Assembly: GCA_963664705.1 (NCBI GenBank)
Contig: OY761556.1
Span: 1,312,001 to 1,376,000, forward strand
Reading direction: 5' to 3'
Source of the DNA: Acidobacteriota bacterium
GTDB lineage: Bacteria; Acidobacteriota; UBA6911
Length of the DNA: 64,000 nucleotides
Below, piece after piece: positions 1,566-64,000 of the stretch. The notes under the pieces are model-generated. The model ran no database searches and had not been told where the DNA came from. It was given only the letters and a program-made list of their open reading frames with translations. The position numbers and the translations under genes were made by a program. The number at the start of each line of letters is the position of its first letter. The stretch's first letter is position 1.

Positions 1566-1580
1566 CACGCCGCCCCCTGC

Positions 1581-1891
1581 CACGTCCCCCATCCCCCACG
1601 TCCAACGTCTCAACGTCCCAACGTTCCACGTCCCACGTCCCAACGTCCAACGTCCCAACGTCCCAACGTCCCAACGTCCAACATCCCACGTCTAACGTCC
1701 CAACGTCCAACGTTCATCGTCCCAACGTCCAACGTCCCAACGTCCAACGTCCAACGTCTCAACGTCCCACGTCCCAACGTCCAACGTTCCAACGTCCAAC
1801 GTCCAACGTTCCAACGTCCCAACGTCCAACGTTCACCGTCCCAACGTCCAACGTCCAACGTCCAACGTTCACCGTCCAACGTTCACCGTCC
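1581..1891. repeat. Degenerate 7/8-mer array (CCAACGT/CCCAACGT on +), ~300 bp
   Basis: Directly visible tandem units with local variants (gttcaccgtcc). Confidence 0.95.
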
Positions 1892-8091: not shown

Positions 8092-8583
8092 ATTCCAGAT
8101 TCCAGATTTCAGATTCCAGACGGGGTTCCGGCGGCATCAGCGCCATGCAAGCAGCCAAGCCCTTGCCGGCCAGACGCTGCCTCCTGCCTCCTGACTCCTG
8201 CCCAATTGTGGACACCCATGAATTGAGGATAAAAAACAGTGGGTGTTCACAATTGTGATTCCAGATTTCAGATTTCAGATTCCAGACTGGGTTCCGGCGG
8301 CATCAGCGCCATGCAAACAGCCAAGCCCTTGCCGGCCAGACGCTGCCTCCTGTCTCCTGTCCCCCTAACCACTAACCACTAACCTCTAACCAATTGTGGA
8401 CACCCATGAATTGAGGATAAAAATCGGTGGGTGTCCACAATTGTGCCACAATTGTCGATTCCGGATTCCAGACGGGGTCCCGGCGGCATTAGCGCCATGC
8501 AAGCAGCCCAGCTCCTGCCTGCCAGACGCTGCCTCCTGACTCCTGTCTCCTGACTCCTGCCTCCTGTCTCCTGTCCCCCTAAC
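8092..8583. repeat. Three-unit mosaic repeat (BIME-like): heptamer runs, ~64-bp core and REP hairpin
   Basis: Core GGGTTCCGGCGGCATCAGCGCCATGCAA...CAGACGCTGCCTCCTG at ~8123, ~8289, ~8475; ATTCCAG/ATTTCAG, CTCCTGN and CTAACCA runs; AATTGTGGACACCCA...TGGGTGTCCACAATT hairpins. Confidence 0.9.
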
Positions 8584-54178: not shown

Positions 54179-55399
54179 ATGACTGAATCGCTACCCATCT
54201 ATGCGGAATTCTTTCCGGCTCTTTCGCAGGACCTGATTTCGAATGGGAGCGTTGCCCTGATGCTCCTCGATGTCTCGGAGTTCGATGTCATCGAGGAACT
54301 GTACGGCTCCCAAATCTATACCCTTGTGCGCAATCGCTTGATCCACATGCTCGTGGAACAGGCCGGAAAAGAATTCCGACGCGAAGACATCCTCGCCCTC
54401 GAACAGCCGGAGGGACTGCAGATCCTGCTCTTCCTCAGCCCCAAACGCCACTCCAAACTGCGATCCTTCAAAGACCTCGACTTCGTACGCACCCGGATGG
54501 CCCAGTCCCTGGTCCCTTCTCTCGTGCGCACCGCCTTCCCCTATCTGAAAAAGCCCCCGCGCATCGATATAGGATTTTCGATCGGCGTGAATAATCCGCT
54601 CCAGGACCCGCATCATATTATTTTGCGCGTCATCCGCGAGGCCGGCGAGCGCGCCCGCTGGCAGCGCGAAACGGATAAATTGTACCGGTTGCAGGAACTG
54701 AAAGAGACCATCGTCAACGAACAGATCACGACCGTTTTTCAGCCGATCGTCGGGATCCATGACCGAAGGCCGATCGGGTTTGAAGCCCTGACCCGCGGCG
54801 GCAAGGATTCCGGCTTCTCCTCCGTGGACGAAATGTTCAACACCGCGATCAAATGCCACCTGCTGGTGGAACTGGATCGCCTGTGCCGCAACCGCGCCCT
54901 GATTGCCGCCAGCCGCCTGCCGGCCGGAACCAAGGTTTTCATCAACACGCTCCCCGCCACGATCCGCGATCCGCAATTCCAGGGGCAGGCTCTGATTCAA
55001 TTGCTGGACCAGGGGAGCCTTACCCCCGACCGCATCGTCATCGAAATCACCGAAAAGCTGTTGATCGACAACCTCAGCATGTTCCAGGAATCGCTGAGCT
55101 ATTTCACCGCGCTCGGCATGGCGCTCGCCGTCGATGATGTCGGCTCGGGTTACTCCGGCCTCGAAACCATCGGCAAGCTTCGCCCCGGGTATCTCAAACT
55201 GGACGCCTCGCTCATTCAGGATCTGCCCCACCGCCCCGTCAGCCAGGAAATGGTCAAGGCGATCCTTACCCTCGCACGCGGCATCGGCTCGAAGGTCATC
55301 GCCGAGGGAATCGAAACAGAAGCGGAATTGGATATTCTCCGAAATATCGGAGTCGACTACGGACAGGGGTATCTTCTGGGCAGGCCGCAGGAACGATGA
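54179..55399 (+). CDS. EAL-domain c-di-GMP phosphodiesterase with degenerate GGDEF-like N-terminus
   Basis: FQPIV, FEALTR, IEITE, DDVGSGYS, AEGIE, GQGYL. Confidence 0.9.
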   Translation: MTESLPIYAEFFPALSQDLISNGSVALMLLDVSEFDVIEELYGSQIYTLVRNRLIHMLVEQAGKEFRREDILALEQPEGLQILLFLSPKRHSKLRSFKDLDFVRTRMAQSLVPSLVRTAFPYLKKPPRIDIGFSIGVNNPLQDPHHIILRVIREAGERARWQRETDKLYRLQELKETIVNEQITTVFQPIVGIHDRRPIGFEALTRGGKDSGFSSVDEMFNTAIKCHLLVELDRLCRNRALIAASRLPAGTKVFINTLPATIRDPQFQGQALIQLLDQGSLTPDRIVIEITEKLLIDNLSMFQESLSYFTALGMALAVDDVGSGYSGLETIGKLRPGYLKLDASLIQDLPHRPVSQEMVKAILTLARGIGSKVIAEGIETEAELDILRNIGVDYGQGYLLGRPQER

Positions 55400-55672
55400 A
55401 ACGTTGCACGTTGGACGTTTGGACGTTGGACGATGGGAACGTTGCACGTTGCGACGTTGGACGTTAGACGTTGGGACGTTGGACGATGGGACGGGAAACG
55501 TTGGACGTTGAACGTTGGGACGTTTGGACGTTGGACGTTTGGACGATGGGAACGTTGGATGTTGGAACGTTGAACGTTTGAAGAAACTGGATCAAGGCCG
55601 AATAATCCGTGTGGGCTCCCGTTCCCACGTCCCTCGTCCAACGTCTAACGTCCAACGTCTAACGTCTAACGT
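55400..55672. repeat. Inverted pair of heptamer arrays (GGACGTT 55400-55579; AACGTCC/AACGTCT 55619-55672)
   Basis: Directly visible between convergent genes. Confidence 0.92.
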
Positions 55673-55673
55673 A

Positions 55674-56705
55674 TTATTCCGCCTTGATCTGATCCCACAT
55701 TTTATTGTATTTCGCCGTATCCGCTCCAAGATCGTCAATCACCTCGCACTTCGCCTTCACCTGCGGTGCCAGGAATACGGCCGGGTTATTGCGCAGTTCC
55801 GCGTTCACCTTCGGATAGCTCGTCTGGTTCGGGCAGACATACGAAAGGAAATTCGTATTCTCCGCCGCCACTTCCGGATCGTGGATAAAATTAATAAACG
55901 CATGCGCGAGCTTCGCTTCTTTCGCGTTCTTCAGAATCACCAGGTCGTCGCACGAAATCGACGTCCCTTCCGCCGGGATCACAAACTGAATATCCGCATT
56001 CTCCTTTTGCACCTGCAAAAGATCGCCGCTGAAGCCGTGGACGAGCAGAAATTCTCCCGACGCGAGTCCGCCCTTGTATTGCTCCGATTCGAACTTCGCC
56101 AGGTTCTTTTTCCACGCGATGACCACGTCGCGCGCCGCGGCGAGCTCCCTGTCGTCCCGCGAATTCAGGCTGTACCCGAGCGATTTCAGCGCGGCACCCA
56201 GCGTCTCGCGCATGTCGTTGAGCATGGTCATCCGCCCTTTCAGCGCCGCCTGGTTGAACATCGTCCACGAAGGCGTGAAGTTCTGCACCTTCGACTTCAA
56301 ATAGGCGATCCCGGTATTGGTCAGCATGTACGGGACGCTGTGCTCCATCTTCGGATCCATCGCGATCTTCAGGTAGTCGGTGTCGACATGCTTCAGGTTC
56401 GGCAGCTGGCTGTGGTCCATCACCTGAAGATACCCCTGATTGTTCATTATTTTGACGAAATAGCTGCTGGGGGTCAGCAGATCGTACCCGGTCGCGCCCG
56501 CCTTGATCTTGGCGTACATCGATTCATTCGATTCAAAGGTGTCGATGACGATCTTGCAGCCGTGCTCTTTTTCAAAACGCTGCAGCAGCTCCGGCTTGAA
56601 ATAGTCCGCCCAGGTGTAGATCTTCAATTCAGGCGTCTGGCGCCGGCAGCCCATGGGCATACAGCACAGGATGAGGGACAGAAGAATCAAAGACCGGAAT
56701 TTCAT
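55674..56705 (-). CDS. potD: Spermidine/putrescine ABC transporter substrate-binding lipoprotein
   Basis: YTWADY, FESNE, GYDL, GYSLNS motifs; operon context. Confidence 0.9.
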   Translation of the reverse strand: MKFRSLILLSLILCCMPMGCRRQTPELKIYTWADYFKPELLQRFEKEHGCKIVIDTFESNESMYAKIKAGATGYDLLTPSSYFVKIMNNQGYLQVMDHSQLPNLKHVDTDYLKIAMDPKMEHSVPYMLTNTGIAYLKSKVQNFTPSWTMFNQAALKGRMTMLNDMRETLGAALKSLGYSLNSRDDRELAAARDVVIAWKKNLAKFESEQYKGGLASGEFLLVHGFSGDLLQVQKENADIQFVIPAEGTSISCDDLVILKNAKEAKLAHAFINFIHDPEVAAENTNFLSYVCPNQTSYPKVNAELRNNPAVFLAPQVKAKCEVIDDLGADTAKYNKMWDQIKAE

Positions 56706-58347: not shown

Positions 58348-58432
58348 CACCTGCTGCGCATTGGAAGCGCCGGCGTCTCGACGAATTCCGCCTATTATTT
58401 GTTCTAAGCCCTGCGACGCGAGCGAAGCCATA

Positions 58433-58631
58433 GGCCCGGAGGGCCGAAAGAGCGTAGCCGGGGGTGAGCGCTTTTTGCGAACCCCCGGTTGGAGAGAAGC
58501 CTAGTAAGAGCCCTGGAGGGGCGAAAGATCGGCATTCTGCCGCCCCTTCAGGGCTTGTTACCAGCCTAATCCAATCCGGGGGTTCGCTTCGCTTCACCCC
58601 CGGCTACGTTCTGGCCGCCCCTCCGGGGCTA
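58433..58631. repeat. Nested palindromic REP/MITE-like element between potA and potB
   Basis: GCCCGGAGGG..TAGCCGGGGGTG ... CACCCCCGGCTA..CCCTCCGGGGC; inner GCCCTGGAGGGGCG/CGCCCCTTCAGGGC. Confidence 0.8.
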
Positions 58632-60614: not shown

Positions 60615-60699
60615 CGAAGACCTCGACGTGGGAAAAGGAACATTGATTCCATTAAAAGTGCGGAGTGTATGAGGTATGGGGGGGGATGTCAAGGGGGAG

Positions 60700-60877
60700 G
60701 TTGGACGTTGGGACGTTGGGACGTTGGACGTTGGGAACGTTGGACGTTGGGACGTTGGACGTCGGGACGTTGGACGTTGGGACGTTGGAACGTTGGGGAC
60801 GTTGGGAACGTTGGACGTTGGACGGTGGGGCGTTGGAGGTTGGACGTTGGGACGTTGGACGTTGGGACGTTGGACGC
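60700..60877. repeat. GGACGTT/GGGACGTT array
   Basis: Directly visible. Confidence 0.93.
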
Positions 60878-60890
60878 GGGAGGGGGGAGG

Positions 60891-61649
60891 TTAGCGACGG
60901 GAGGAGGGAGATTGCAAAGGCGGCCAGTCGTTCAGGCCGATGACGGCTTCGGCCGGGATTTCGTGCCCGCCATCAAAAGGGACAAACGTAACCTGCAGGC
61001 CTGCCTTTACCATGTCCATCCGCAGACGCTCCGCGAGGTCGTACGGCAGGATGTTGTCGCCGCGCCCGTGGGCCATGAAGACCGGAAGCCCTTTGCGCCG
61101 CGCCATGCCGGCCCGCCAAGCTGCTTCATTGACTGGCGTCCCCGAAAAGATAATCAGCGCCGACAGAGGTTCGTCCGACATAAAAGCGATCTGGCAGGCG
61201 ACCATGGCTCCCTGCGAAAAGCCGCCCAGGAGGAACGGGTGTTTGGCCGAATTCCCTTCGGCCGACATCACGGCGCGCACCTCCTGCGCGGCCGATTCCA
61301 GTCCGCCGGGCGCGTCGAGCGACAGGTCGATGCCGTTCTGGTGGATGCGCAGGTGCGCCGCGAGATCCAGGTCCCACCACGCAAGCCCTCCCGTGGACCC
61401 GTCGGTGCGCAGCGCCGGCACCGTGGCCTCCGGAAACAGGAAGCGCCCGTTGCCGGGGAGCGCGATACTTTCCGAAAAGGGAAGCCAGTGCTCGGCGGAA
61501 GAGCCATAGCCGTGCAGCAGCAGAAGCGTCGGCGGCCCCTCTCCCCCGCGCTGAATCACGCGCAGCGGCATTTTGGGCGAAAGCATCAGCACCACTGCCG
61601 TCACCGCCACCGCAACCAAAATAACAATCAGTATGTATTTCCCGCGCAT
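60891..61649 (-). CDS. Phospholipase/carboxylesterase
   Basis: LLHGYG, GFSQG, HGRGD, GGHEI. Confidence 0.9.
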   Translation of the reverse strand: MRGKYILIVILVAVAVTAVVLMLSPKMPLRVIQRGGEGPPTLLLLHGYGSSAEHWLPFSESIALPGNGRFLFPEATVPALRTDGSTGGLAWWDLDLAAHLRIHQNGIDLSLDAPGGLESAAQEVRAVMSAEGNSAKHPFLLGGFSQGAMVACQIAFMSDEPLSALIIFSGTPVNEAAWRAGMARRKGLPVFMAHGRGDNILPYDLAERLRMDMVKAGLQVTFVPFDGGHEIPAEAVIGLNDWPPLQSPSSRR

Positions 61650-61653
61650 AGCT

Positions 61654-61773
61654 CACGTTCCACGTTCCCACGTTCCACGTTCCAACGTTCAACGTTCAAC
61701 GTTCAAACGTCCAACGTCCAACGTCCCAACGTCCCAACGTCCAACGTCCAACGTCCAACGTCCAACGTCCAAC
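61654..61773. repeat. CCAACGT array
   Basis: Directly visible. Confidence 0.92.
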
Positions 61774-63681: not shown

Positions 63682-63726
63682 AATGCCTCCCGGGTTTGAT
63701 GAAATGAGGCCCCACTTTACCGCGAT

Positions 63727-63877
63727 AACGTGAAACGTTGCAACGTTAGACGTTAGACGTTGGGACGTTGGACGAGAAAACCGTTGGACGAAAAAACGTT
63801 GGACGTTGAACGTTGGGACGTTGGACGATTGGACGTTGGACGAGAAAACGTTGGACGATCGGACGTTGGACGATGGG
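63727..63877. repeat. GGACGTT array with GGACGAGAAAACGTT variants
   Basis: Directly visible. Confidence 0.9.
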
Positions 63878-63886
63878 AGGGGGAGG

Positions 63887-64000
63887 CTATGGGTGGGATT
63901 GAAGGTATTTGATGAAATTTGAGAGCTGGGCAGCGAGCTTTCTGGCTTTGTCCATGACTACATCGAATTTTTCGGAATTAATGTAGGCTTGATCCAAAGC
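63887..64000 (-). CDS. C-terminus of a four-helix-bundle protein (23S rRNA-IVP / Avd-like), cut by the window edge
   Basis: Reads ALDQAYINSEKFDVVMDKARKLAAQLSNFIKYLQSHP*, matching the ALDxxYI...L.xFIKYL end of this family; not in the ORF track. Confidence 0.7.
   Translation of the reverse strand, partial: ALDQAYINSEKFDVVMDKARKLAAQLSNFIKYLQSHP

Follow-up and report, generated by a model that had tools for sequence, protein, structure and literature searches.

A four-helix-bundle gene enclosed by inverted 7-8-base repeat arrays: a candidate selfish cassette in an Acidobacteriota genome

The four-helix-bundle gene and its arms

The window (the whole stretch of 64,000 nt analysed here, i.e., G000:C1:1312001-1376000, where G000 is this genome, a 6.89-Mb single contig) breaks off inside a gene of the PF05635 family; G-numbers denote genomes, L-numbers denote loci, and coordinates called window-equivalent continue past position 64000. 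The PF05635 family is widespread and structures have been solved for it, but we know of no function. The unlisted minus-strand ORF end near a repeat array, noticed in the preliminary description, is real: the frame (ALDQAYI...FIKYLQSHP) closes with a TAG at 63889-63887, its stop lying 9-12 bp from the array, and the complete ORF obtained by extending the contig (window-equivalent 64255-63887, 122 aa) is intact. In profile searches, the 122-aa protein scored 105 bits with PF05635 (cut-off 33.8) and 100 bits with TIGR02436 (cut-off 24), both models matching over their full length, and the suspected membership of the family was thus borne out. The cassette comprises, in gene-strand order, a distal F arm, a spacer, a proximal R array, the ORF, a linker and a downstream R arm:

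64398-64507 (window-equivalent): distal upstream F arm (GTTGGAC)n, 110 nt with GGAGG at its end, inverted relative to the other two arrays
64352-64397 (window-equivalent): AT-rich spacer, ~47 nt
64260-64351 (window-equivalent): proximal R array (CCAACGT)n, oriented as the downstream arm, directly upstream of the ATG
63887..64000, minus strand: 3' part of the four-helix-bundle gene (PF05635/TIGR02436), continuing to window-equivalent 64255 (G000:C1:1376255)
63875..63886, minus strand: linker CCTCCCCCTCCC, 12 nt, between the four-helix stop and the downstream arm
63725..63874, minus strand: downstream R arm, (CCAACGT)n on the gene strand, 150 nt, ~17 units of 7-8 nt

The protein is basic (pI 9.6), and the Pfam/NCBIfam scan returned PF05635 and TIGR02436/PRK12275 only, without a transposase or nuclease domain. 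Its predicted structure (pLDDT 96) has four long helices and is most similar to Xcc0516 (2GSC; TM 0.87, E 6e-7), followed by BT_0352 (TM 0.79) and Avd (TM 0.75, E 0.03, sequence identity 7%); in the PDB, its sequence relatives were Xcc0516 and, weakly, 2RLD, with no others. The structural homology with Avd asserted in the preliminary description is matched by this likeness of fold and by nothing beyond it, the single reverse transcriptase of the genome being that of a group II intron. In the family motif GxxRxxxSxxxNxxE, as given in the available part of PMC3936711, R44, S48, N52 and E55 are invariant or nearly so (alignment of 47 sequences, with 17 invariant columns), and the leading G is substituted in this protein (QIRRAAVSAMSNIAE). 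The locus is tiled by contigs from two runs of a single sample, the long pieces of which agree letter for letter; the contig joints are all short and lie within repeats, and one raw-read run gave zero reads on the stretch. No Shine-Dalgarno-like word was found upstream of the ATG (69/101 homologues have one), and the search for a consensus promoter and terminator at the locus found neither; because both the Shine-Dalgarno-like word and a consensus promoter are missing, this copy may be silent.

The oppositely oriented array that had been considered upstream of the gene is present, 47 bp beyond the same-orientation proximal array, and the downstream array overlaps the TRF rows 63728-63779 and 63796-63878. 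Within the ACGTT family, to which these arrays belong, the variant AAAACCGTTGG is confined to the distal and the downstream arm (10 hits genome-wide, of which these two fall in arrays); because of this restriction the two arms are read, from their sequence, as a matched pair. The CCTCC of the linker is complementary to the terminal GGAGG of the distal arm. The whole unit is predicted to fold at -295 kcal/mol (z -8.8 against 20 shuffles), with ~69 bp of predicted pairing between the distal and the downstream arm and ~30 bp between the distal arm and the proximal array. The ORF would then lie in the loop of a long terminal stem, and co-transcription of the outer arms needs a start outside the distal arm. 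At the outer ends no target-site duplication is visible, and the filled and empty sites of congeners are too diverged for base-level alignment. An origin of the proximal array by local inversion was rejected, as its variants show no special match to the downstream arm; it is also disfavoured by the closest homologue (L224), which has an R-type array before its ATG too.

ACGTT arrays in the window, at stop codons and around the gene

The neighbours of the four-helix gene are a DUF2207 and an LPG synthase gene. Other arrays of the ACGTT family, with or without an enclosed gene, occur in the same window:

61652..61773, minus strand: F arm, running from 9 nt past the DUF2207 stop codon (gene at 63681-61780) to the esterase start
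60891..61649, minus strand: esterase gene (Abhydrolase_2), in the canonical layout of host stop, F arm, gene, linker and R arm
60878..60890, minus strand: linker CCTCCCCCCTCCC, after the esterase stop
60695..60873, minus strand: R arm 3' of the esterase gene
55398..55675, between convergent genes: gene-less F-R hairpin pair, loop of ~45-50 nt, each arm starting at a stop codon
54056..54168, plus strand: gene-less, loopless F-R hairpin, starting 6 nt past a stop codon
50719..50997, plus strand: solo ACGTT-family array, ~37 copies
1579..1891, minus strand: solo F array, ~40 copies, starting at a stop codon

The esterase cassette lies ~3 kb downstream of the four-helix gene. As had been described from the window, the linker also joins the esterase stop (60893-60891) to its array, with CCTCCCCCCTCCC at 60890-60878 and the array at 60873-60695; the 12-mer CCTCCCCCTCCC occurs twice in 6.89 Mb (here and at one other site, for which no array is listed) and the 13-mer CCTCCCCCCTCCC once. 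The canonical layout and the same linker at the esterase suggest that arm and linker were copied together. In the ACGTT family, an R arm after a gene's own stop alone was found for the esterase, an FHA gene and the four-helix gene only. The idea that arrays act as brackets capturing or inverting genes was not upheld: 10 of the 18 ACGTT F-R pairs enclose other sequence, and many of these are explained otherwise, namely as two convergent genes each with its own after-stop array. Arrays also occur within a coding region: the O-antigen ligase gene at L001:14574-15770 (G000:C1:1386574-1387770, minus strand) contains three in-frame ACGTT arrays in loops and at the C-terminus, the first of which adds 23 residues absent from 7/8 aligned homologues; in one homologue of 68% identity, shorter stretches coded by arrays occupy these three sites as well. 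Two toxin-antitoxin pairs, of the HicA type (L001:7014-7749) and the BrnA type (L096:9903-10760), each lie between ACGTT arrays, as does an ORF6N gene (L095:1608-2126); ORF6N also occurs in five metagenomic four-helix loci.

Genome-wide, 264 period-7 TRF rows were obtained and 252 arrays were called, almost all of them intergenic (1/252 called inside a gene), with F-then-R pairs dominant. With anchoring defined as an array end within 25 nt of a co-oriented stop, 93 of the 252 arrays have their F 5' end only at such a stop, 28 the other end only, 13 both and 118 neither; the polarity (93 vs 28) is significant at p 2e-9 and amounts to 72 vs 23 without the ACGTT family. Homologous cassettes likewise start within 25 nt of an upstream stop in 34/56 cases, and the gene-less arrays have the same unit, polarity and anchoring at stop codons as the cassette arms.

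The ACGTT arrays are crowded around the four-helix gene, 45 of the 53 lying within 170 kb (uniform simulations reach at most 9), and the position of the gene is in the richest 1% for these arrays. Spacers are occupied in 8/10 cases within 5 kb of the gene, 9/15 at 5-15 kb, 4/36 at 90-110 kb and 0/56 beyond 110 kb, with both distance (p 0.015, given GC3) and GC3 (p 0.007) contributing to occupancy. The left edge of this territory is formed by a short array at 1169-1227 and the solo F array at 1579-1891, its best-fitting centre is ~14 kb from the gene, and 13/37 candidate centres fit better than the gene itself. Local copying between neighbouring arrays was rejected, because variant similarity shows no decay with distance (44 arrays, r 0.02, 3426/5000 permutations as low). 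In G266, one of three other genomes examined for locality (with G017 and G238), 7/30 sites of a related family are no more than 100 kb from its gene (a position in the richest 1.7%) without a GC3 shift, and four 20-kb stretches at the gene, picked with knowledge of the sites, gave 16 array hits vs none in seven arbitrary stretches of similar GC3. Locality around the gene was absent in G017, in G238 and at the four G000 paralogues; G238 was discarded as a second local cluster since the nearby gene has another unit and the family concerned is dispersed.

The territory, taken by itself, might also be DNA imported from a higher-GC relative and already full of ACGTT arrays; the gene would have arrived with it, and the crowding would be uninformative on action in cis. 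We place this reading, which is compatible with the explanation preferred below, slightly short of an even chance, and regard import from such a relative and spread in place as about equally likely. In its favour, the median GC3 reaches 0.78 in the 10 kb around the gene, compared with 0.61 for the genome as a whole, and the 50-kb windows here are the highest of the genome. The 68%-identical O-antigen ligase with array-coded insertions at the same three sites comes from elsewhere, the high-GC congener G010 has related arrays, and arrays of resident families number 0 vs 4.5 expected in 1.321-1.462 Mb (18% of 105-kb windows are equally empty). However, GC3 declines gradually and the borders are not sharp; the territory mixes genus-typical genes (folD, potABCD), a G014-syntenic block into which it runs, and array-free low-GC islands; its single folD is 83-91% identical to those of 21/29 congeners; the potABCD proteins show no greater similarity to G010 than to G037 or G032; the genes around outlying arrays are mostly host-like in GC3; and the local enrichment in G266 comes without a GC3 shift. 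That the gene itself caused the GC3 rise was rejected, the rise being absent at the four paralogues and in G266. A donor was not found: the exact ACGTTGR pattern occurs in 3/400 other genomes of the phylum with at most 8 matches, and a similar pattern in 2/29 congeners.

Several further features of this region were recorded. GC3 forms a broad, smooth peak with gradual fall-off over G000:C1:1.26-1.53 Mb, and third-position GC skew is mostly negative left of ~1.42 Mb and strongly positive right of it, like a former origin or an inverted segment. The single folD (G000:C1:1462003-1462926, L099:2006-2926) has its counterpart in several congeners beside homologues of the G000 genes at ~957 kb, and its neighbours are different again in G005, G010 and G032. 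A low-GC island after a tRNA gene (window 20197-~44000), with a tyrosine integrase, a P4-type primase, type I restriction-modification genes and a helicase, is phage-satellite-like and array-free. Just after a tRNA gene, window 8092-8575 holds a 186-bp tandem duplication along with several short arrays belonging to other heptamer families. Between potA and potB lies a ~200-bp palindromic, REP/MITE-like repeat (window 58431-58631), with dozens of 70-79% identical copies in G014 and few in G018. An S1/P1 nuclease gene (G000:C1:1478041-1478868) and a gene for 177 aa (1474729-1475262) are array-flanked and inverted relative to the G014 block; array-driven inversion was not accepted for them, there being one comparator and different array families, so that polarity is not assignable.

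Homologous cassettes and their repeat units

G000 has five PF05635 genes, each with arrays on both flanks (5/5) and each with a family of its own (ACGTT, CAGGAG, CAGTAG, GATTCCA and ACGAAT); in the other four paralogues the arms are directly inverted. Altogether six heptamer families coexist in this genome, five of them tied to one gene each and one regionally confined. The gene of the GATTCCA family (G000:C1:361642-361990) is frameshifted, yet its repeat family is the largest; it is intact at the same site in G010. Four ACGAAT-family hairpins stand in tandem at G000:C1:3262349-3263227 with a spacing of ~260 bp.

Homologues were collected from 78 genomic and 80 metagenomic loci (158 in total), of which 107 were non-redundant with both flanks, and the other ORFs of the same loci served as controls (n=169). 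The enrichment of heptamer arrays beside such genes, which the preliminary description had held to be decisive, is present across genomes: by arm-to-arm alignment, inverted similarity between the arms exceeded the control 95th percentile at 92/107 loci vs 6/169 control ORFs. Direct arm similarity, which is inflated by palindromic cores, did so at 47/107 loci vs 10/169 controls. The 92/107 figure is independent of the stricter chain detector, which under-calls degenerate 8-mers and found both arms in 28/75 and 16/64 loci. The homologue tree was a quick version used qualitatively only, and a search of the viral collection for relatives (phage carriage) found none.

The unit follows the protein, as had been anticipated. 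Unit and protein similarity are correlated (Mantel r 0.54, 0/2000 permutations, for the 62/114 proteins with callable arrays, 59 of these 62 having inverted arrays), and unit similarity rises from 0.07 at <30% protein identity to 0.75 at >80%. Across phyla the tracking is weak, the nearest protein beating the mean in 36/58. The closest homologue found, L224 (66%), has ACGTT arrays too, as do Chloroflexota and Bacteroidota homologues of this protein; the top-ranked homologue in the Mantel set, L039, has a different unit. Within the genus, protein clades map on related units, and because of this the 'orphan' GATTGAC family was assigned to the ACGAAT clade. Since kin share units, the co-variation falls short of proving recognition.

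Presence of the gene and presence of arrays were compared in congeners. GATTCCA-pattern matches number 157-738 in the 5/30 genomes whose clade gene has GATTCCA arms (G000, G005, G010, G017 and G037) and 0-16 in the other 25, e.g., 0 in G032, whose clade gene has a variant unit; among the 13 closest genomes, chosen by RNA-polymerase-subunit identity, this co-occurrence has a Fisher p of 0.005, kin not being independent. For ACGAAT, a matching gene was found in 7/12 array-rich and 0/18 array-poor genomes, a distribution that follows kinship (p 0.46, 13 closest), and in 5 of the 12 ACGAAT-rich congeners no matching gene was found. The 7/30 congeners without a PF05635 match have 0-1 matches per repeat pattern. 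A counter-example is G010, in which ACGTT 8-mer arrays are on many contigs and no gene of the ACGTT clade was found (310-contig assembly). The view of the gene-less arrays as non-autonomous derivatives, put forward from the window, fits their shared unit, polarity and stop anchoring and the occurrence of GATTCCA arrays in bulk only with a matching gene, but it falls short of proof. Congeners have cassettes at four sites without such a gene in G000, and the GATTCCA gene occupies different junctions of one operon in G005 vs G010/G000; sites filled in one genome and empty in relatives may reflect either movement or differential loss.

Proposed mechanism, competing readings and related systems

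The mirror-image arms, the crowded gene ends and the matching repeat that each gene has of its own suggest that the protein likely seeds or maintains the repeats. We propose, giving it an even chance, a selfish cassette: its protein would recognise the repeat that goes with it and favour the formation of arrays at gene ends, to be used as landing pads. The four-helix gene is enclosed by inverted arms of a 7-8-base repeat, and its basic product, presumably a pentamer like Xcc0516 and Avd, would bind the repeat as single-stranded nucleic acid, by analogy with Avd most likely RNA. In the transcript the arms may pair into a long stem and be cut by RNase III as in rRNA intervening sequences. The protein would seed or maintain repeat copies at host gene ends, mostly nearby at first; the gene-less arrays and F-R hairpins would be products or remnants, serving as landing pads into which the four-helix gene, and occasionally another (the esterase), may enter by recombination between repeat arms. 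The DNA-writing enzyme would lie outside the cassette's coding capacity. What is observed comprises the layout, the pairing of one protein with one repeat, the stop polarity, the crowding and the presence/absence sites. Counting against the proposal are the ACGTT arrays of G010, the five ACGAAT-rich congeners in which no matching gene was found and the kinship pattern of that family, the weak tracking across phyla and the different unit of L039, the absent locality at the four paralogues and in G017 and G238, the off-centre position of the gene in its territory, the unit variants that show no decay with distance, and the possible silence of this copy. The suggestion of a selfish or RNA-processing unit, made at the outset, is partly supported by the layout, the inverted arms and the protein-unit pairing; its RNA processing and its mobility are predicted.

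The main rival, which we consider rather unlikely, is that the repeats spread by themselves (host slippage, gene conversion) and that the gene is a passenger, bringing the seed and surviving in a cleavable hairpin, while its protein has no action on the repeats. Joint arrival would explain both the co-variation and the co-occurrence, arrays persist where no matching gene was found (G010 and five ACGAAT-rich genomes), one of the five G000 genes is frameshifted while its family is the largest, and the S23p protein of Coxiella is, according to the available part of PMC4990558, probably not made in vivo. A passenger, however, gives no reason for a conserved basic protein with an invariant motif to keep its matching unit across phyla, nor for copies to start mostly at stops with one polarity.

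Host regulation, by an RNA-binding regulator of transcripts with after-stop repeats that is autoregulated via its own arms, we regard as improbable. The arrays are indeed nearly all intergenic and strand-polarised at stops, and a post-transcriptional role has been proposed for the heptamers of Beggiatoaceae (PMC4679880, in the part available); but the array-marked genes share no function, families and sites turn over between congeners, of which 7/30 are without the protein family, and a regulon limited to one chromosomal stretch is hard to motivate. That the gene is a DGR accessory gene or an rRNA intervening sequence is very improbable: the fold matches Avd (TM 0.75, E 0.03) and S23p-family structures, but the only reverse transcriptase belongs to a group II intron at 5.756 Mb, 4.4 Mb away with a group II RNA domain nearby, and no rRNA gene is present in the 142 kb scanned around the four-helix gene, the neighbours of which are protein genes.

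Beyond the selfish cassette as proposed, a transposase-less selfish class may be envisaged, and we consider it unlikely, in which the protein reads one 7-8-base word and directs its writing at the stops of nearby transcribed genes. Under such word-writing, landing pads would be built outward from the gene and would be the source of bacterial heptamer repeats, and the ACGTT territory would be an invasion in mid-spread, dense within 15 kb, gone by 110 kb and entering protein loops in frame.

[quoted passage not shown] It is alike in the protein family, in an ORF in the stem loop of terminal inverted repeats, in tandem heptamers upstream of the ORF and in its sporadic distribution; the present cassette differs in lying between protein genes, in repeat arms of 110-150 nt, in a third array nested upstream and in the ~50 gene-less arrays of the same unit around the gene. 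Heptamers have been described in Xanthomonas (GGGAATC) and Nostoc (PMC4692102) and in Beggiatoaceae (TAACTGA; PMC4679880), and, as far as the available parts of these papers go, they share with ours intergenic 7-base arrays, inverted pairs and a strand bias at stop codons; for Xanthomonas, a sense-strand preference within 50 bp of the stop codon was already published (PMC4692102). Unlike these, the six families here include five that are gene-tied and one that is regionally confined. In the portions covered of PMC4692102 and PMC4679880 there is no link to a four-helix bundle ('four helix' and 'helix bundle' occur 0 times in the latter), and those of PMC8700078 and PMC6749651 hold nothing on a link between heptamers and four-helix proteins. 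Avd is a pentameric barrel gripping RNA stem-loops (bioRxiv 10.1101/2023.10.23.563531; PMC10053308; PDB 4DWL; sources available in part); the present protein shares its four-helix fold and basic character, but has 7% sequence identity with it and no linked reverse transcriptase. The resemblance of PF05635 to Avd is noted in PMC10053308, and PMC3936711 describes PF05635 genes that lie between cas genes (both available in part).

The logic of the locus also resembles REP/REPIN elements with their RAYT transposase, and MITEs, in which one protein gene is flanked by cognate repeats and many gene-less copies occur in the genome. The cassette differs from REPIN and MITE elements in having no nuclease or transposase domain, and in tandem heptamers of variable number instead of fixed palindromes. 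The open-access literature (most subscription journals lie outside it) gave the parts, namely heptamers in one IVS, polar heptamer arrays and the Avd-like PF05635; neither a class of such cassettes nor a repeat territory centred on a gene was found described there.

Many bacteria have an excess of heptamer repeats, which have received little study (PMC4692102, available part), and the locus ties them to PF05635, from which specific predictions follow. One genome with five proteins and five matching repeat families provides a ready specificity matrix for binding, and the young-looking, regionally confined ACGTT family a system for probing action in cis. If the protein seeds repeats, they would have a testable origin, long missing for bacterial 7-base repeats; if it directs their formation, this would be a new mode of spread for a selfish gene, and would provide an Avd-related module for 7-base recognition that is reprogrammable.

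Two minor observations concern other repeated elements of this genome. Acido-Lenti-1 RNA has four matches, 350-400 bp apart, at L001:12764-13913; matches to this RNA point to Acidobacteriota as the likely phylum. Three GxxExxY (PF13366) genes (G000:C1:4472310, 2163578 and 3800606) are flanked by 9-base repeats, and in two of the three partial duplications of their own flanks were seen.
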